Shown piece by piece: positions 5,204 to 61,275 of a stretch of 64,000 nt of DNA. The notes under the pieces are model-generated. The model had not been told where the DNA came from, did no database searches, and saw only the letters and a list, made by a program, of their open reading frames with translations. Source of the stretch: Rhizodiscina lignyota (lineage: Eukaryota); assembly GCA_010015805.1 (NCBI GenBank), contig ML978125.1, positions 186,001 to 250,000 on the forward strand. The letters are read 5' to 3'. The stretch's first letter is position 1. Every line of letters begins with the position of its first letter. The position numbers were made by a program, and so were the translations under genes.

Positions 5204-6230
5204 CTAAGCACTTTTCCTTGCTATTACTCTCAATCGCACGTAGCCCATCCATTGGCTACCATCTTCAGTTCGAGTGATTATTCCATCAAGCAAATCAGCC
5301 ACCCATCTCACGACGTCGTCTTTCTCCTTCTGCGTCTTGAATTTATCCAGAAATGGCGCACACATCAGCTTCAGCCAGCCTTCTAAGCCCCCTTTTCCAT
5401 CTTCTGTCTTTGGGGTTAGCTTCGTAGGTCTGTACTCAGTCTCTAGCTTCTCCACGACCAGTCCGACGTCCTCCAGCGTCTTCCGCATCCATGCCTCGCT
5501 CGGGAAGAACCACGGCGATGCTGCGTGCGCCTCTGCCGTCGGTATGCCGCGAGCTATCAGGCCTGCGACCATAGCCGCATGGATTTCGGCGCAATTGCCG
5601 GCACCGCCCATTTCAAAGACGAGAACTCCGTCGGGTTTCAGCGCCTCCCGAACAGCCTCGAAGACAGACGCTTTTGGCTCTGCATAGCGGAGGATCCAAT
5701 GTAACGCTGCGTTAGAGAACACTTTGTCCCAGCTGCCATTGAGAACATCGGATGGCGCACTCTTCAACAATGCCGCGCAATCTTGAACGCGGTACGTGCA
5801 GTTCGACGATGCCGACTTCTCCTGGGCCGCTTTGATCATGGATTGTGAAGCATCCAGGCCCAGAACCTGCCCAGAAGGCACCATGGCCGCAACCTGAGCT
5901 GTGAGAATACCATCTCCACACCCAATATCCAGGATTCTGTCAGTCGGACGTGGGGCCAGATACTGGACCACCGTGCTCGTCAGTTTTGGGACGAACGATG
6001 CCGCCGACGAGTATGCCTGCGGGAGGGTGTGATCAGCACGGGCATCGAGATGTGACGAGACAGCTCATCTTGCATGAACGCTTTGCAGAATCTTATGAAA
6101 AAAAATGTCCCGACAGCACGGGTATTAAAGTCTGAGCGAAAAGGGGAAAACCGTTGAAATTAACATGGCCCGATTCGGAGTAAAGTACGCACCGCGGAGG
6201 TAAACGCACCGCGGATGACCAGTGGTCCAT
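5204..6230 (-). CDS. Class I SAM-dependent methyltransferase (exons 6230-6210, 6016-5204; 277 aa)
   Basis: Motif I (ILDIGCGDG), the DKVFSNAALHW motif and LKPDGVLVFEMGG. A micro-exon MDHWSSA is joined through a GTGCGT...CTGAT...CAG intron to AYSSAASFVPKL. Confidence 0.9.
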
Positions 6231-6305
6231 GCTACGCTATCGTGTCGCCGTTGTGACGAAGGTGTGGGCTACGATGTCTAATAGTAACGTGGTGCAGGAA
6301 GGACG

Positions 6306-7076
6306 TCAGGCGGAGGGCGGTAGGAGTGGGTGGAGAGACTCGACGGACGGTGTGTAGAGAGAGAATACGGTATCTTTAAGGAGGTGAGGAGTCGAAAAGA
6401 GCGCCGATGGCGGAGTAGTTAGGTGGGTGGCAGCTTGGCAGATCACGGCAAAACTGCGGCGGAGCGATAGCCCCTTCGTACTATCAACCTCGCCTACTGG
6501 GAAGATGTCGTGTAGGATGATGGATCTGAGCAACCGGCGTTCGATGTGAAGGAAAAGTAGGATAAACCCAGCTGGTGGAATACTTGGAAAAAGGTTGCTC
6601 TGATCAGGATGGCCCGGGTGTTGAAGATTAGGATAATCGCGCGTCAATTCCTCTGAACATCGACCAGGATGCCCAAAACGTGTTTGGTGTCACTTGCGAT
6701 TGATTGCGGTTTTGAAAGCTTCAAGGCTGGTTTGATAATGCCATCAAGTTAGGTATTTCGAAGACTTTAGCACTGCCGTCCCTAATTTCGAGATACAGTT
6801 TGCGGATTCGTATGACTTTGAGGTGGATTCGTCGCGCTCGTTCAGAAAGAGTGGATTTACTTCCGAGGGTGAACATAATGGTGTTCGGAGTCGTGGTTCG
6901 ATCTGGTTTTCGTTTTTTTGGTTTCGTTTTCATTTGGTTTTGATTTTGGTTTTGCCATCTGCGTTAGCCTTGAGCATTTGCTTAGTCAAACAGGCTGAAC
7001 ATGAACAGATTGCTTGCAAATGCTCAAGTTGACGGGCGACGCTGCGGGGAAGTGTAGATCGGTCTTTGTCGCCCAT
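6306..7076 (-). other. Possible orphan or degenerate coding sequence (ORF fragments 6306-6647 and 6721-6933 plus an upstream ATG)
   Basis: Short same-strand ORFs and a GCTAAC...CAG acceptor near 6960. No recognisable domain, and I could not build a continuous gene model. Confidence 0.2.
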
Positions 7077-7089
7077 TTGAATAGAGTTC

Positions 7090-7245
7090 CTAATACGTCT
7101 GCTCAGGGCGAGGCCCTTTGCTCGTGTCCTAGGCCTCTAGTATGTCTGCTCCAGGCCGAAGCCTTTCACTCATGCCCTGAGGGCTTTTATTGAGGATACT
7201 CTAGCATGCCTGATCCAAGCCGAAGCTTTTCACTCATGCCCTGAG
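7090..7245. repeat. Three imperfect ~45-bp direct repeats
   Basis: ctaatacgtctgctcagggcgaggccctttgctcgtgtcctagg (from 7090), ctagtatgtctgctccaggccgaagcctttcactcatgccctgag (from 7137) and ctagcatgcctgatccaagccgaagcttttcactcatgccctgag (from 7201). Confidence 0.75.
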
Positions 7246-9250
7246 TTTGCGGGTTGCTTGTGCATCCTGGTTTTGTGGCCTGAAAGCTTCCCGAAACATT
7301 TCTTGCAGTCCTCACAGTAGCCATGGGCCTTCTTCTTTGGCTCACCGCAGTGGGAACAGTTCTCCATGGTGGCCTTGGTGGCCTTGGTGGTATGCTGGTC
7401 TGCTCTGTGGTGTGAAATGTGCCCGAAACATTTCTTGCAGTCCTCGCAGTAGCCATGGTTCTGCTTCTTTGGCTCACCGCAGTGGGAACAGGTCTTAAAG
7501 GTGATATGCTTGCCTCCTTTGTGGCTTGGAAGGTTCCCGAAACATTTCTTGCAGTCCTCGCAGTAGCCGTGTGTCGGAGTCTTCGGGTTACCGCAGTGAG
7601 AACAGTTCTCCAAAGTGGCATGCTTGGTTCTTCTGTGGCGTGGAAGGTCCGAGACATAAGTTTTGCATTGCTCGCAGTAGCCATGGGCCGACTTTAGGTG
7701 AAATGTCTTCTGACAGCCATTACAAGATCGACCCAAGCCAACTTTAAGCATGCAGGCGGCTAGACGGCAGCACCATCGCTCGAAGGGCGACTTGGGATCT
7801 AATATCCACTTGGCTTGGCCTGGCCTTTGCTCCTAAGTAGCTCCACAGGCGACACATTTACGTCTACTACGTTCGGAAGGACACGCTTGGAGGAACTGAG
7901 ATGTACCGTTTAGGCCGCTCCAAGATATAGCGGGGATATCTGGATTTCTGCAGTATCTTACGAGCCTATATGACTCTAGATTTCTCTAGCGTTTATCTTC
8001 GCCGCCCTTATCCTGATACGCCGAGGTGTGGTCAGAGAGTAACTTCTCTAGGATTAAGATCGACTTCGTAGAGGAATCGCTTAGGAAAACTCTACCAATA
8101 CGAATATGGGGATAGTTATTCTTATTGGTATATGCTTTCGTGTGCGATGATTCCTAAGAAGATTTGCCCTTCTCTCTTCCCTGGACGTAGTCGCAGCACC
8201 GTCTATCTATGCCTTTTTTACTAGTTGCACTGCCGGTATATGTGTCTAGTTTACTATTCGGGTACTCCAGCCAGTCGAAATAAACGACTTTCGCTGTTGT
8301 GAATAGCTATAGACGTCCTTTCCGGTTGTCTGTTCGAGGTATGCGAGACTTCGGTATCGCCAACAATTCTTCTTTCGTCCACAGGCTAGTACCGCCGAGA
8401 ATCTTCTGGTTATATATAGGTATGACCTCAAAGTATGTCTCTAGCAAGCTATCAATCGCGACCTGGGATAAACTAGCTAGCCTCTATATCTAGCGCTCTA
8501 GCATGGGCTCCTCGTAGGGTTTATCTAGTATTTCACAGACTGCCCGTCTTTTCTTTAGGTCCTTCGCAAGCTCGTAATGCCTCTCGAGGGAGAAGCGGAT
8601 CTATTAGCGAAATCTAACGACGTCCGGGTCTAATTATAAGTCAGTCTTCCTATATATTTGGGTATACGATAAACCTCTACACGGGCGTAGTAACAATATA
8701 GTATCCTCGCTCTGGGCAGTTTAAGGGTATGGTGAGTAAAATTCAAGGGTATGGAATGATTAAAGTTTCCTTTGAGACGCAGTAATATACGCAGAAGGGG
8801 AAAATAGATAACTGAATAAGATCCGGAGTGCCTAGTGGGAGGGCCGTAAGGGGTTTCATTCTTGGTCATGAACGAAAAGCTAATGAATGTTCTGTGCAAG
8901 CTGGTGCGTGATTGCGTAGAATAGAAGAATTATATTGATCTGCCCTATGGACAATGGACATTTGCAACAGCTTACCGTCTTCAGAGATGAACTCCGCTAA
9001 CGCGGGATCATCCTCCTCGTCCGACAACCAGGCATAGTCGCCGTCTTCCGCCTCCGGTTCCTCCTCTTCCTCTGCTTCCGCATCTTCCTCATCTTCCTCA
9101 TCGTCGTCATCGTCGTAGTCGTCGTCGTCACTGAAGAGACCAAGCTCTTCGAGCGTCTGTAGGTCTATCGAGTCTAAGACCTCACTCGCGTCCTCATCTT
9201 TCGTCAATTGGCGCGAAGCCTTCCGTTTCAAGCTGCTCGACTTTGCCATT
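7230..9250 (-). pseudogene. RIP-inactivated gene: GIY-YIG-like endonuclease plus tandem zinc-finger repeats, with a probable acidic N-terminal exon at 9250 to ~8976
   Basis: The frame of ORF 7230-7751 continues upstream to ~8630 with no frameshift. It is interrupted only by TAG/TAA codons (first bases at 7835, 7988, 8156, 8309, 8486, 8492, 8603, 8606). Read-through gives VVYFDWLEYPNSKLDTYTGSATSKKGIDRRCCDY...ILILEKLL...WSGLNGTSQFLQ, then CVAC..W..CC and four CxxC-HGYCxxC-H-H repeats. Linkage of the acidic 5' exon is inferred, not resolved. Confidence 0.75.
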
Positions 9251-9299
9251 TTGAATAGTAAAAAATCAAAAAATCGAAGAATTCTTTTGCTTGAACGAT

Positions 9300-10157
9300 T
9301 CAACGCTTAGATGACAATGGCACAGAGATTCTACAGAGACAGCCTACCGTACGGACAATCACGATTGACATCTTCTCGCTATCACCTACCTCGCCAGCTG
9401 CTAGACTCATCGTTCGCGTAGGCTGACCAAATGGTACGAGCCATCTACTCATTGCTCGTGCATACATGATACCAGCATGGTCAAAATATCGCCTCATCGC
9501 TTCAAATTGCATGTATTGGAACGAATCTGGGAGGAGCGGCGATAACCGTCAGTCATATCCAATGGCAGTGGGCCGCCCAGACGTTCTTGTAGCATCGTGA
9601 CTTCCTTCCACGAACTCTTGAGGAATCCCGTCCCGTCTGTGAAGACGCTCATAGCTAGTGAAAGAAAAGCGATCGCTGCTCGTGCATTTTCGTACAAACA
9701 CATATCGTGATCCAGGGCCTTCAGATATTCATGGGAAATAGAACATTGAGGTAACCCAAAATGCTGCTGTCGGACACGAGTACTGGATGCAGCGAGTATG
9801 CGCGTAAATATGCTCCTGCCTCTTGCCATAGAGACTAGTGGAATCCAGAGCATCGCCATGGCGCTAGTGTCTCAGCACCAGATGGGTGGGTCTGTTGGTC
9901 TGAAATTGCGGTTGTTCAGAGGGAAGGCACACCCGCACATATCCAGTTATCCACAAACTCCAATGCAGTATAGCAACTGCAGAGTAAGTAGGCATACAAT
10001 CCATGAAGAAGAATTGAATCGCCTCATTCACGAGTATTGCTGTAAATTGCTGTTTCCATATTGTATAGGCTCGGGGGTTTTTCTCGAGGCGGATGGCTCT
10101 CAGCGGTATCTCCACGCAAATGGAAGTCACGAGCGTCCGAGGCAATGATCGATCCAT
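9300..10157 (-). other. Probable multi-exon orphan gene or relic
   Basis: Three consecutive minus-strand ORFs (9864-10157, 9494-9859, 9300-9512) with plausible splice signals such as CTGAG...TAG near 9864. No domain recognised. Confidence 0.3.
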
Positions 10158-10585
10158 CTGCGGTAGCCTGGGCTCGGGTAGGCCTACCTAAACTTTAATG
10201 TCAGAATAGCGTAGTATGTAGGTAGATATATGTAGAATCGAGGCCCACGATAGTCTGGTAGTACTCCGTACACGTCGCCACAATGACCTCCTCCTTCACC
10301 ATCAACGGCCGGAATATCAATATTTATATATGTAAAAAATCTCCTTACCATGCTAATCCCGGGATTTCATTCTTATACATGCCCGTCTCATTCTCATCAA
10401 CGGTCCGTCAAATCGTTAAATCATGACCAAGATGTCTTTCAAACATACTGCGTTCTTGAACAGAACAGCTTATTTAGCGTTCATTCTACAATCATTAATA
10501 CAATTGCATTCATGTTTCCGATTTTCAATTCCCGTTCTCCTTTACCTCTATACTCATCTCACTCAGTAACCACAGTAATTCAATC

Positions 10586-11239: not shown

Positions 11240-11919
11240 TCAATCTCTTCCATAGGAGATTTTGGTGCGTTTGACACTCTTAGTGTCCGTATCGTCTTCA
11301 TCATCTCCAGCCTTCTTCTTCTTTGACGTTGACTTGTTCGCTCCAGTGCTTCCCGGCGTCGGATGGTTGCTTGCTCTCCCGTTCGGAGGGCCATTGGAAG
11401 TTGGCGTTGGAGCGTGTGATGGGGTAGTATTTGCAGATGATGGGGCAGGAGAGTCCTGGGACTATATGCTGTCTGAGCAAATGTACTTATGTCAGGCACA
11501 CCATGGTTTCCTTACTCTTGCAACGCTAACTGAGCTGCGGCTGAATATTCGATCACTGTCGCTGATACCAGTCCTTCGGCGCGTTGACGTGCCTCCAGTG
11601 GCACCACCTCCTCCGCCTGTGCCCGTAGCACCTTTGATGTAGTTGTCAAAGCCTTTTATGATGTTGCCAGCAGTTGTCTCTTCCAGGTAACGCGTCTCGT
11701 GGAAGAGGATGTCTTGATCAAGGCGCGCCTGGTGATGCCGTTAAGTCCATCATCGATCACTGTGAAATATCAATTACTACCAACCATTTGATCATCGAGG
11801 ATACGCTTCTTCTGGAGCGCATCTCTCAGGTCCCGCCGCAGCTTTTCAAAGTATGGCGTTCCACGAGCTTCGCCTTGGGCAGTGCCCGCCGTGCCCGGCG
11901 GTGGAGCATTCTCGGACAT
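11240..11919 (-). CDS. EAF6: NuA4 histone acetyltransferase subunit Eaf6 (two introns)
   Basis: Spliced translation MSENAPP..PYFEKLRRDLRDALQKKRILD..ETRYLEETTAGNIIKGFDNYIKG..RRRTGISDSDRIFSRSS. GNIIKGFDNY and DRIFSRSS are Eaf6 signatures. Confidence 0.92.
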
Positions 11920-12250
11920 GATGGGTCGGTATGTAGAAAGAGCTTTGTCGAAATTGATGGCACAGTCTTGTGCTAGCTGCTATCGTATCATCATACGTCC
12001 TGGCGTGTTGGAGCGATGAATGTGTAACGTGAATTGGGCATCGAAAGTTCCAGTTGCGCAGAGCCGCAAAGGGCGCGGTGTTCGCGCGCAAATCAAAGGC
12101 TGCCGATCGCGGCTCAGTCCCACTTCTTCCTTCAACATCACCACCACAACCCCAGCGCTGTCACGCGAGCTCTACCTCAAAACCAACACCACCTCCGCCT
12201 ATATCTTGCTCGCCGCTTCTGAATACGACCTTTAATCATAACAGCCTCGC

Positions 12251-13204
12251 ATGCCTCGCAACATGGATGCCAAAGAAATTGTGCTAAAAGGCAAGGACAT
12301 CACCAAAGCCTTCGCCGGTGGAGACAAACCAGATTCCCTCCTCGCTCTCCTGGACGACCTGCGCAAGGGTGTTAAAGCCTCAGAAGAGATACTGCGATCG
12401 ACGAAGATCGGTATCACAGTGAATCGGTTGCGCGCGCACAAGGACCCCAATGTGAGCCGGCAAGCTGCTGAACTGGTGGCGAAATGGCGAACCGACGTCA
12501 AGAACGCTTCCGGTGGATCGGGCTCATCGACACCAAAGGTACAGAACGGCTTGTCTTCGCCAGCTCCATCGCCAGCGCCTCCGAAGCCAAAGGCTAAGCA
12601 CAGTGTGCCGCCGGAGAAGAGGAATGCGAAGGCGGATAAGGTCGATATAAACGTGACAGGCAATCCGACGCGCGACAACTGCCTCAAGCTCATGTACGAT
12701 GGATTGGCGTTTATGTCGGAAGATAGTATGCGTTCTTAAAATGTGTTTTACCTAACAATTACTTACGTTGATGTAGTGCCTGACGAAGTTATGCGCGTTG
12801 CGCGCGACGTCGAACTCGCCGCCTTCAACAAGTTCCAGCCCGAGTCGTCTCCGGAGTACAAAAATAAGATCCGCTCGCTCTACCAGAACCTCAAGAACAA
12901 GACGAACCCTGAACTTAGGAAGCGCGTGCTGAGCGGCGAGATTATCGCTACACGGTTCGTAGTGATGAGCCACGAAGAGCTGATGTCACCCGCACGCCGC
13001 GAGGAGGACAAAAAGCTGATGAAAGAGAACATGGACAAGGCGATGGTGGCGCAAGAGGAGAAGAGCGTTAGCACGAGCTTGCAGTGCGGCAAGTGTGGTC
13101 AGAAGAAGGTTAGCTATACGCAGGCGCAAACGAGGAGTGCGGATGAGCCGATGACGACGTTCTGCGAGTGCTTGAACTGTGGTAGGAGATGGAAATTTTC
13201 ATGA
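12251..13204 (+). CDS. DST1: Transcription elongation factor TFIIS (intron 12726-12776)
   Basis: N-terminal LRSTKIGITVN, central YKNKIRSLYQNLKNKTNPELR and a C-terminal zinc ribbon CGKC..QTRSADEPMTTFCECLNCGRRWKFS. Confidence 0.97.
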
Positions 13205-33422: not shown

Positions 33423-34080
33423 TTGAGAGTGCTTCTGCGGAAGTGTGGAGGGTGTGAATACAACGATGAAGATTTGAGCATCACAGCGTGGCGCACTCTG
33501 CACTCTCCTGTCTTTCTTTATTTTCTGGACGGATGTCACGCGCGCGAATGCGCATTGCCTATATGACATTTGCGACGATTTGTTTTTGAGGCAAGGTCTT
33601 TGTGTTTGGATTTGTGGACCGTCGACAGGCATCCACTTGTATAGGACGTGGCTACGTTCTTGCGGTCTTCTTCCCTTTCTTCTCTTTCGGATTCAGCTGT
33701 CTCGCGCGCGAGCGTGCAATGCCGGTATCACGCTGCGAGGGTTTGTCTTTTATGGGTGCCTTTTGCGTTTGGATTCGTGGACTGTCGACAGACACCCACT
33801 TGCATAGGACGTCATACGTCTTGAGGATTTCTTTCACGTGTTTGTACTCATACGACTGACTCATTACGAGCTGCATAACGAATAGTTAGGCGAACGATTA
33901 AGTAGGCATGTCGCCTACTAAATGACAGTGGTTTGCTGATAGAGTTCGCGCAAGGCTAAGGAGTGCGCGCGCGATTTCAAGACTGGTCCGCCGTACAAAT
34001 ACGTACCAAACCAATAAAGTCTCTCCTGTGCTAAAATTGCAGTGCAAGACCATATCATTGGTAGATTCCCGCCTGCAGCT

Positions 34081-34321
34081 CAATCTCAGTGCTCAGAGGC
34101 TATCACGTGACCTCGGCCCTGGCATAATCGTACACGGCAAAAATAGACCTAAAGTACTACATATTTAAAATCTATAAGACCATAGTGAATCGATATAGAA
34201 TAATGTAGTCTACCTAGAAGTATATCACATATAACGTAGAAGAGGTCGAGGCCTTCTATAATCTTATTTCTCAGAGGCTCAGCCAGGCTAGGTCACGTGA
34301 GCCTCTGAGACACTGAGATTG
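34081..34321. mobile_element. MITE-like non-autonomous element, ~240 bp, with imperfect ~40-bp terminal inverted repeats
   Basis: The left end caatctcagtgctcagaggctatcacgtgacctcggccctggc matches the reverse complement of the right end, caatctcagtgtctcagaggctcacgtgacctagcctggc. The interior is AT- and TpA-rich and non-coding. No clear TSD. Confidence 0.7.
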
Positions 34322-59745: not shown

Positions 59746-61275
59746 TCACACAATACTGCCAGCGCCCTTAAGCAGCCTCCAAACGCCAATCTTTGGCGCC
59801 TCTCGTCCCGGAATACCACCGGCCTTACTACCCTTCGACACCGTCCTCCTTTCGCGGTCTGGGGAATCACCATACTTGGGCGGCACCATCGGCGGAATTG
59901 GACTCGGCGGTAACGGCCTACTGTGCGAGTGACCTGTCGACCCGCTACTCCACGAGTTCCAACTCTCCCTGTCCTTTTCCTTTATGGGACCGGCGTTCCG
60001 GTGGGACGCCCAATGCGCAAGTCCTGAGGCTGACAAGCGCCGGGGTGGATTTCCGTACGGTGAATATGGCGGCAGAGAGGCAGAGGCCGAGGAGACGGAC
60101 GTTCCGGTACGGTAATTATGGAAGTGCTGAATTGCGTTGCTTCGCTGCTCAGGCTCGAGCCAAAACTCATCGCCTGTAAAGCTGACAGGGTCGAAGCCAA
60201 AGGACTCCATGAATACGACGACATCGTCGAGTACAGCGTCGTCGCTTTTCCGAGTCGACACACTGGCGCCGTCAGTTTCGCCGAGGACGTCTTTGAAGAT
60301 GTCGAGGTTTGCGCCGAAATTGCCGTAGTTGGTGAAGTCACCCACTCCGAATGCCTCATCTGCGTCTTGGAGGGCGTGGACGCGCTTTTGTTGGAGCTTG
60401 ATGGGGCCCGGGACGTATGATGAGCGTCGCCAAGCTGTTTGCTCTGGAGGCACAAGTGTGATGACGGAGCCGCTGCGAAGGCGGAGGGCGTGGGCGAGGC
60501 CATCTGCACCTGGACTGGATCCAGAGTCAAGAGATGAGCTGCCTCTAGAATGTTGACGCTGGCTCTGTCGATTGAGCTTCGCTTGGGATGTTGGCGATAA
60601 TGGACTCTGCTGTTTCGGAGATGGCGCTGGGAGGACTTTGCCTGAGCTTGCACTGCGAGTATGCCTATGTTGTGAGATCTTTTCTTGGCTCGTCGGGTTA
60701 TACATCTCTACCGGGGTGGGTGCCACAGATTCGGGTGTTGCAGGTAAGGGCTTGTTAGTGAACGCCATAGCTTCCACTCGCAGAGTGTCCAACTTCTTCA
60801 GTTGCAAAGCATTTTTGACTCTTTGTCGTTCAGATAGGCCTTTCGGCGTGGTTGTCAATCCAGCTTTCTGACTACCCCTTGCTGCGCTGGCAGGCCTGAT
60901 GTGTTCACGGGATGCACTAGGGCGCCGAGTGCCACTTGTCGTTTTGACAGTGACATGAGTCGATGGACTCCTACCACCACTAGATGTGCTTCTTTTCACC
61001 GTTTCACTCGCAGGTGGAGAGCCTCGAGAGTCTTTTGATTCCAGTCTGGCTGAACCTCGGAGAGTTATGTCGGACTCGTTCGACGAACGGTTCGTTACGC
61101 TCGGCCGTCTCGGTCGCTTTGGCGGAACAGAAGGGCGGGGTGGTGTTTGGCTCTCAGTTAAGCGTACATTCGCCATGGCTTCGCTCAAGGCGTGCTCCAA
61201 TTGCGTTCCAATGGAGGGCTCGCCACGAGTGGGCGAAGGAGTTGAGAAAGGTATTTTGTTTTGAGCTGGGTGCAT
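59746..61275 (-). CDS. Ser/Arg/Pro-rich fungal protein of unknown function
   Basis: 509-aa ORF with short ordered blocks LRLRSGSVITLVPPEQTAWRRSSYVPGPIKL and SDDAVLDDVVVFMESFGF. Confidence 0.78.
   Translation of the reverse strand: MHPAQNKIPFSTPSPTRGEPSIGTQLEHALSEAMANVRLTESQTPPRPSVPPKRPRRPSVTNRSSNESDITLRGSARLESKDSRGSPPASETVKRSTSSGGRSPSTHVTVKTTSGTRRPSASREHIRPASAARGSQKAGLTTTPKGLSERQRVKNALQLKKLDTLRVEAMAFTNKPLPATPESVAPTPVEMYNPTSQEKISQHRHTRSASSGKVLPAPSPKQQSPLSPTSQAKLNRQSQRQHSRGSSSLDSGSSPGADGLAHALRLRSGSVITLVPPEQTAWRRSSYVPGPIKLQQKRVHALQDADEAFGVGDFTNYGNFGANLDIFKDVLGETDGASVSTRKSDDAVLDDVVVFMESFGFDPVSFTGDEFWLEPEQRSNAIQHFHNYRTGTSVSSASASLPPYSPYGNPPRRLSASGLAHWASHRNAGPIKEKDRESWNSWSSGSTGHSHSRPLPPSPIPPMVPPKYGDSPDRERRTVSKGSKAGGIPGREAPKIGVWRLLKGAGSIV

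Follow-up and report, generated by a model that had tools for sequence, protein, structure and literature searches.

Probable relic of a GIY-YIG/zinc-finger nuclease-like gene bearing a signature of repeat-induced point mutation in Rhizodiscina lignyota

An interrupted reading frame and its modules

The 64,000-nucleotide stretch of Rhizodiscina lignyota DNA analysed here (contig ML978125.1, positions 186,001 to 250,000; hereafter the window) contains a pseudogene on its minus strand, at 7230..8633, in which a core resembling the GIY-YIG nucleases is followed by an array of zinc fingers. The limits are those of homology and comprise a translation of 466 amino acids together with the stop codon at 7230-7232. 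Reading through the interruptions of the minus strand from 8630 to 7233 yields a single frame of 466 codons (P0001) that contains no frameshift and eight in-frame stop codons, seven of them TAG, one TAA, and none TGA. An earlier note on this DNA had described such a hidden frame; the read-through translation bears out that description and contains each of the motifs it had listed (VVY...YTGSAT...G..RR...Y, ILILEKLL, and WSGLN). X9 is TAA, and X10, X47, X49, X108, X159, X215, and X266 are TAG; from X9 to X266, their first bases lie at 8606, 8603, 8492, 8486, 8309, 8156, 7988, and 7835. Downstream, the frame passes into an open reading frame (ORF) of 173 amino acids at 7230..7751 on the same strand. 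A further in-frame TAA occupies 8637-8639, directly upstream of 8630, and the pseudogene has no in-frame ATG left near its 5′ end. The other five frames of 7752-8630 contain 10 to 24 stops compared with eight in the pseudogene frame; the stop count by itself is not remarkable and does not mark this frame out. The frame is proved real because it has homologues, detected by phmmer and tblastn, and not because of the number of its stops.

The N-terminal helical region (residues 1-111; 8298..8633), delimited by the family alignment described below and common to the family, contains stops X9, X10, X47, X49, and X108. It is followed by the GIY-YIG-like core (residues 112-205; 8016..8297), which is defined by alignment and fold, includes VVY117, Y131-T-G133, G140, R144, Y148, H163, F182, and E195, and is interrupted by X159. 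Alignment next places a linker with WSGLN (residues 206-258; 7857..8015; stop X215) that is common to long-form relatives only, and then a GATA-like zinc finger (7752..7856; stop X266), recognized by alignment, profile, and fold, that is degenerate in the window copy. The tail is an array of four 38-amino acid zinc-finger units of 114 nucleotides each: unit 0 (residues 303-340; 7611..7724), which reads C-x2-C-x10-HGYC-x2-C-x10-H-x4-H, unit 1 (residues 341-378; 7497..7610), unit 2 (residues 379-416; 7383..7496), and unit 3 (residues 423-460; 7251..7364). All of these modules lie on the minus strand. The ligands of the general pattern, C-x2-C-x9-10-H-G-Y-C-x2-C-x10-H-x4-H, are intact in each of the four units; the intervening residues differ from unit to unit. 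Superimposed on the gene is a patch that resembles the product of repeat-induced point mutation (RIP). Its approximate limits in 200-nucleotide index windows, 7800..8850, take in about 200 nucleotides of 5′ flank and the coding part up to the start of the GATA-like finger.

A small ascomycete family and the fold of its core

The read-through P0001, with X at each stop, was compared by phmmer with 1.84 billion representative proteins. There were 19 matches at E <= 0.001, of which six reached E <= 1e-10. The top match, P0002 (E 8.5e-27), is a public gene model that matches the window locus itself and not an independent relative. Among true relatives, P0003 is the best full-length match (E 7.9e-22, query residues 3-216), followed by P0004 (1e-15) and P0005 (1.5e-14). 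Three of the 19 (P0016, P0019, and P0020) were set aside as generic cysteine-repeat or low-complexity proteins. One of these, P0020 from the basidiomycete Cristinia sonorae, is a 459-amino acid protein of tandem units of about 29 amino acids that shows weak likeness to a fused core fragment (E 9.4e-4, four stretches). When relatives were compared with the 64-kb window by tblastn, they matched the pseudogene locus only. Each produced a single high-scoring segment pair with no change of frame, as in the cases of P0003 (8633-7983, E 1e-27) and P0008 (8432-7764, E 1.6e-14), and the gene has therefore decayed by substitutions only. A word-indexed homologue search returned nothing for the read-through, two matches for the profile of alignment A1 (its own members), and five for P0009, of which three were new. 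Scans of metagenome contigs for related loci gave 119 pattern matches with A3 and 315 with P0003, none of which was confirmed.

The family is a small, unnamed, and patchily distributed set of nuclear genes of ascomycete fungi. Those of its records that bear a real name are called "hypothetical" or "uncharacterized", except that two long forms bear an automatic "Bright/BRCAA1" label. The named sources are Exophiala, Vermiconidia, one Eurotiomycete, and Rhizodiscina lignyota; the others are metagenomes or read assemblies. The earlier note had considered that the homologues might prove to be a housekeeping gene, and 19 matches at E <= 0.001 in 1.84 billion sequences do not describe a widespread gene of that kind.

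Members of the family occur in short and long forms. Short forms (180-264 amino acids) consist of the helical N-terminal region and the core. Long forms (302-622 amino acids) begin with additional basic and acidic sequence and also have a linker containing a G-L-N element, a C-x2-C...C-x2-C finger whose tail is basic, and then at least two more cysteine-rich units. The window copy has a short-form-like N-terminus and a long-form C-terminus. In alignment A1, the order of core, GATA-like finger, and cysteine-rich repeats is found in six intact long-form relatives, and the window frame crosses the same junction between core and finger, as seen both in A1 and by tblastn. The fusion to zinc-finger repeats proposed in the earlier note is thus a layout that these relatives share. 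Three long forms, P0009, P0028, and P0029, from Exophiala (Eurotiomycetes) and Vermiconidia (Dothideomycetes), have cores that are 57-58% identical, which is a high value across two classes for a family that is otherwise very patchy.

All 17 intact members share seven residues (W, Y, G, G, R, Y, and F) without variation, and the GIY tyrosine, the histidine, and the glutamate are each present in at least 90% of them. The invariant residues include the Tyr and Gly of Tyr-x-Gly and, in 17 of 17 members, an Arg with a Tyr four residues on; the Glu is found in 13 of 14 sequences at its A1 column. Of 50 consensus residues, 27 survive in the window copy. Every motif residue is among them: Y117, the Y131 and G133 of Tyr-x-Gly, G140, R144 with Y148, H163, F182, and E195. 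The earlier note had conceded that intact homologues lacking the Tyr, Arg, Glu, or Asn positions would tell against its proposal; the Tyr, Arg, and Glu are conserved in the relatives. From its place on the last helix, the Glu is probably the metal ligand.

The fold of the core was assessed in the intact relative P0008, whose AlphaFold model has a mean predicted local distance difference test score (pLDDT) of 74, with values of 83-94 over residues 1-130. The model comprises strand 39-47 (G-V-Y), strand 57-64 (Y-V-G), helix 69-83 (R73 and Y77), helix 92-97 (H93), strand 103-112, and helix 119-133 (Glu), and the motif-bearing strands and helices follow the order of GIY-YIG domains. In a structure search of 48,161 PDB chains, ranks 1-5 were all GIY-YIG enzymes. 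I-TevI was the best match (Z 8.2, root-mean-square deviation 2.4 over 82 residues of its 92-residue chain, model residues 38-134), followed by T4 EndoII (Z 7.0), PD-T4-3 (6.5), UvrC (6.1), and Eco29kI (5.4); At-HIGLE stood at rank 12. Of the 14 best Foldseek rows (E 0.06-0.5), ten were GIY-YIG enzymes (UvrC, Eco29kI, and PD-T4-3) and four were GATA fingers. The fold assignment carries weight because the top rows agree, the whole domain is covered, and the motif residues fall on the right elements. A look-up of P0003 in a language-model Atlas points the same way: GIY-YIG clusters account for 16 of 30 named matches, with a top score of 0.93, and the structure rows include GIY-YIG domains from phages, clusters of Penelope-like proteins, and a cluster of 82 unnamed members from Ascomycota. 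The claim of the earlier note that the core is GIY-YIG-like is thus supported by the fold of a relative and by motifs conserved in the family and in the window copy.

Residues 184-240 of the P0008 model overlie GATA fingers, with AreA matching at Z 4.5 and a root-mean-square deviation of 2.0 over 42 of 42 residues. The family profile finds GATA-1 to GATA-4 at E 0.075-0.36 and, with an ArfGAP finger included, at 0.013-0.36. The GATA-type scores from the profile, from Foldseek, and from the structure search are all below threshold. Long-form relatives have C-x2-C-x17-20-C-x2-C and a basic tail in this finger; the window copy reads C259-x2-C262 ... C287/C288-x4-C293, so that its second half is CC-x4-C where the relatives have C-x2-C. 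Pfam scores four stretches of the tail array as the DBF4-type finger PF07535 (E 1.6e-4), a likeness only, as the 22.1 bits fall below the gathering cut-off of 24.8. The exact 173-amino acid ORF is absent from a collection of 15 billion proteins.

Several features of the DNA around the array were recorded. A direct repeat of 47 nucleotides (7135-7181 and 7199-7245; 89% identical, 64 nucleotides apart) overlaps, with its second copy, the final codons and stop codon of the zinc-finger ORF and amounts to a small tandem duplication at the 3′ end of the gene. Contigs of the DNA run X1 break within the array, at window positions 7422-7565, at a 33-mer of double depth. Run X2, which bears another organism code, contains one 142-nucleotide piece identical to 7439-7580 at depth 2, together with low-complexity acidic matches. 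The matching contigs of both runs are of DNA type only, with no joints and no second copy.

Mutation signature and competing explanations

RIP classically converts CpA to TpA. In the interrupted part of the gene (7752-8630), the TpA/ApT ratio is 1.30 and (CpA+TpG)/(ApC+GpT) is 0.78, and both pass the thresholds of the RIP-index literature (above about 0.89 and below about 1.03, respectively). The whole window gives 0.60 and 1.30, and the zinc-finger ORF, at 0.60 and 1.51, has no such signature. Neighbouring spacers range over 0.68-0.76 and 0.97-1.36; the stretches 6700-7229 and 9303-10500 give 0.68/1.36 and 0.72/1.29. All 18 of the 200-nucleotide windows that start between 7800 and 8650 pass, with TpA/ApT of 1.06-1.64 and (CpA+TpG)/(ApC+GpT) of 0.50-0.93. 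The signature begins near 7800, ends near 8850, and holds all eight stops, as expected from the RIP-type origin that the earlier note had proposed for them. No other stretch of 1.15 kb reaches a composite index above zero; over 592 windows outside the patch, the highest value is -0.22. Four 500-nucleotide windows (6001-6500, 12501-13000, 33751-34250, and 59751-60250) barely pass both thresholds; their composite indices of 0.05-0.20 are far below that of the patch, and none lies in a longer stretch.

Strand-symmetric odds show what has changed. Within the patch, CpA/TpG stands at 0.63 compared with 1.14 in the rest of the window (0.55-fold), and TpA at 1.34 compared with 0.61 (2.2-fold). CpG, CpC, and CpT are not depleted, their values being 1.1-1.2 times those of the rest of the window. 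X108 is a TAG at a position where Trp (TGG) is invariant in 14 of 14 relatives. Among one-step departures of the window copy from the consensus, five are C-to-T or G-to-A and one is the reverse.

These results suggest a model in which the locus is, with good probability, a copy of a GIY-YIG/zinc-finger nuclease-like gene that was inactivated by RIP-type mutation. The intact protein would have consisted of a short helical N-terminus, a GIY-YIG-fold domain, one GATA-like finger, and four 38-residue zinc-finger units. In its GIY-YIG domain, strand 1 would have carried the first Tyr, strand 2 the Tyr-x-Gly, and helix 1 the Arg and the Tyr four residues apart; the His would have followed, and then the Glu on the last helix. 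The zinc modules may have bound DNA and thereby placed the putative nuclease beside a chosen sequence for a nick or cut. CpA-to-TpA mutation of the RIP type would then have struck about 1 kb, the 5′ flank and the first 270 codons, creating eight TAG or TAA stops with no insertion or deletion. The zinc-finger tail would have lain outside the mutated segment and would for that reason remain an open frame of 173 codons. The patch may mark a former duplication.

Several points weigh against this model. Pfam finds no GIY-YIG model (PF01541, PF19239, or PF10544) in the read-through at E <= 10 and, likewise, in none of the 17 relatives (0/17) even at E <= 10, so that the domain claimed by the earlier note finds no match at the level of sequence profiles. 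A search of the family profile against PDB sequences found zinc fingers and no GIY-YIG chain. Consistent with these results, no GIY-YIG domain was detected by Pfam in the 19 phmmer matches at E <= 0.1, and phmmer of the read-through against PDB sequences returned chance saposin rows only. The AlphaFold model represents P0008, not the window protein, and was built from an alignment of 16 rows only; the Z of 8.2 for I-TevI lies in the range that the search tool describes as common among best matches, for which it names values of 7-8; and no Foldseek E-value is below 0.05. A catalytic Asn element is not established in the family. The G-L-N element, which lies about 45 residues after the Glu, occurs in the long forms and the window copy only; the short forms end before it, and the earlier note's reading of WSGLN as the catalytic Asn is accordingly not established. 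The tail is similarly uninformative: dN/dS between its units ranges from 0.39 to 1.44 with no clear signal of selection, and an AlphaFold model of the 173 amino acids from the single sequence is unusable (pLDDT 50.8).

The case for RIP meets difficulties of its own. The direction test comprises six informative codons only, and 17 other departures from the consensus are not of the RIP type (11 transversions and six multi-step changes), as expected between distant relatives. No second copy of at least 80% identity was present among the 15,746 contigs of run X1, in which gaps prove nothing. A second degenerate relative, P0010, is recorded under the same species name as the gene model that matches the window, which speaks for the model. 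This paralogue, however, is only 52% identical over 58 residues and lies within a dubious gene model, so that it does not demonstrate the duplication needed for RIP.

The strongest rival concerns the role of the family. Its members could be host regulators comparable to the plant ET factors rather than nucleases that cut for their own propagation. They would use zinc repeats together with a GIY-YIG domain that nicks DNA to influence chromatin or DNA methylation, and the window copy would then be a redundant paralogue that was lost following duplication. The available text of the source describes ET factors as joining zinc/DNA-binding repeats to a GIY-YIG nicking domain (PMC6585611), an ET cluster appears in the Atlas look-up as a weak lead (0.77), and the N-termini of the long forms are acidic, as in many chromatin proteins. 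The surroundings of the locus also agree with a regulator. There are no inverted repeats of at least 40 nucleotides in the window; the only terminal-repeat candidate between 6000 and 9600 is one 14-nucleotide pair that does not flank the gene; and no transposon genes surround the pseudogene, whose neighbours are ordinary genes. These include a class I methyltransferase (5204-5971) and, identified by eye, two ORFs that resemble ordinary housekeeping genes: an EAF6/NuA4-like ORF (11492-11740, minus strand) and one that is TFIIS-like and ends in a C-terminal zinc ribbon (12242-13204, plus strand). However, PF19239, the model of the ET-type GIY-YIG domain, matches none of the 17 members, the family is very patchily distributed for a set of regulators, and two degenerate copies exist under one species name. 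We regard a regulatory role as possible but unlikely.

Nothing in the window shows mobility or homing of the family. A selfish or fast-turnover gene would fit its sparse distribution and the presence of two degenerate copies recorded for one species name, and a dispensable host factor would fit them equally well. A more speculative idea, to which we give little credence, is that the family represents natural fungal "zinc-finger nucleases" encoded by free-standing nuclear genes. Their rapidly changing finger arrays would direct the GIY-YIG cutter to chosen chromosomal sites, and cutting there would let the gene spread or bias its own inheritance; RIP would serve as the countermeasure of the host.

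A second rival concerns the extent of the gene. Directly upstream of the pseudogene lies an acidic ORF (8866-9249, minus strand), the frame of which differs from that of the pseudogene by one base. P0002, a "hypothetical protein" of 147 amino acids encoded within 8310-9249, joins this acidic ORF, from 9249 to about 8975, to 56 residues of the pseudogene frame. The model contains an intron of about 500 nucleotides, with a GTAAG donor after ...ISED at about 8975, and terminates at X108, one of the RIP-type stops; the annotation is probably a chimera built in part on the relic. The acidic ORF could be the former first exon of an ancestral long form of about 670 amino acids, like the Exophiala proteins. 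In the long forms P0009, P0013, P0015, and P0018, about 150-300 amino acids at the N-terminus form basic and acidic stretches, the acidic ORF has the GTAAG donor, the public model splices the acidic exon into the pseudogene frame, and the RIP patch begins directly past the stop of the acidic ORF. Against this, BLASTP of the acidic ORF with P0013 yields E 1.2, tblastn of long forms finds nothing at E <= 1 in 8633-9303, the two frames lie one base apart, and the intron of about 500 nucleotides in P0002 would remove sequence homologous to the family. The first-exon interpretation therefore appears doubtful. By eye, the acidic ORF and the N-terminus of P0013 have QTLEEL and an acidic run in common, a likeness that is not significant at that BLASTP value.

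A third possibility is that the gene simply decayed as an ordinary pseudogene in an AT-richer spacer, and that the bias toward TAG and TAA reflects composition or deamination of methylated cytosine. In its favour, the run X1 contigs provide no duplicate partner of at least 80% identity, 17 of 23 departures from the consensus are transversions or multi-step, and the GC content drops only to 45% in the patch. However, other spacers of the window (6700-7229 and 9303-10500) do not carry the signature, and the depletion is specific to CpA/TpG and spares CpG, which argues against simple deamination of 5-methylcytosine at CpG. No insertions or deletions have accumulated across about 290 codons, and the patch has sharp limits, beyond which the adjacent tail stays at 0.60/1.51. 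We consider ordinary decay improbable. Finally, it is very unlikely that the 173-amino acid ORF (7230-7751) is a separate functional gene that shares its frame with an unrelated upstream relic by chance, even though it is intact, starts with ATG, has all Cys and His ligands in its four units, and lacks a RIP signature, given that six intact long forms have the GATA-like finger and cysteine-rich repeats right after the core, the P0008 segment pair extends to 7764, past the last stop, the exact ORF was not found in the 15-billion-protein collection, residues 294-466 have no high-identity phmmer match, and dN/dS between the units is not low.

Significance and comparison with known systems

Eukaryotic GIY-YIG nucleases are known mainly as organellar homing enzymes, SLX1-type repair enzymes, parts of Penelope-like retroelements, and plant ET factors. 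To these, a family of fungal nuclear genes invisible to Pfam would add a further undescribed architecture, in which a nuclease domain precedes a GATA-like finger and an array of zinc fingers that varies, and this layout would be the natural counterpart of the engineered Tev-zinc-finger nucleases. If intact members do cut at sites read by their fingers, they could be selfish elements of fungal nuclei and could serve as compact scaffolds for targeting. The copy in the window is no longer functional; its main value is as evidence of the existence of the family and of how locally RIP-type mutation can strike, within part of a gene. It also exposes a public gene model that is probably chimeric.

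The GATA fingers of AreA and GATA1-4 resemble the long forms in having C-x2-C-x17-20-C-x2-C and a basic tail. They differ in that the scores between them and the family fall below threshold and that the second half of the window finger reads CC-x4-C and carries a stop.

The sequence pattern of Tyr-Val-Gly-Lys-Ala followed by Arg-x3-Tyr is UvrC-like, and the UvrC N-terminal domain matches the P0008 model at a structural Z of 6.1; the UvrC entries found by Foldseek include ones titled as Y19F, Y29F, Y43F, and N88A mutants. Unlike UvrC, the fungal family has no other UvrC domains, is patchy and multi-copy, and is not an orthologue of a repair gene.

There is a precedent in Ustilago maydis, the nuclear genome of which also carries a decayed GIY-YIG gene; the available text of the source describes a nuclear relic of a mitochondrial GIY-YIG homing endonuclease that was transferred recently, retains mitochondrial composition, and is clearly similar to intron-encoded endonucleases (PMC7593156). 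The window family differs from the relic as so described, having nuclear composition and no similarity to intron-encoded endonucleases. A nuclear fungal family of the present kind is undescribed in the accessible parts of the literature searched, which included PMC1564403, PMC7593156, and PMC4226871 and did not extend to subscription journals; that literature yielded only mitochondrial homing endonucleases, SLX1, Penelope, and restriction enzymes.

I-TevI-type homing endonucleases share with the fungal family the catalytic fold, the ordered Tyr, Tyr-x-Gly, Arg, and Glu, and an organization in which an N-terminal nuclease precedes separate DNA-binding modules. In contrast to them, the fungal genes are nuclear, have fungal composition, and lie outside introns and organelles; they have no Pfam GIY-YIG or NUMOD match; and their putative DNA-binding part is a GATA-like finger with zinc-finger repeats. 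Plant ET factors are described in the available text of their source as nuclear and plant-specific proteins with a GIY-YIG domain and a variable number of zinc-binding repeats (PMC6585611). They differ from the fungal proteins in that PF19239 has no match in the family and, by eye, in the Cys/His pattern of the repeats. Membership in either the I-TevI-type or the ET group is not supported. The likeness to the plant ET factors, as far as that source describes them, appears instead to be one of architecture: a GIY-YIG domain joined to zinc repeats in a nuclear eukaryotic protein.

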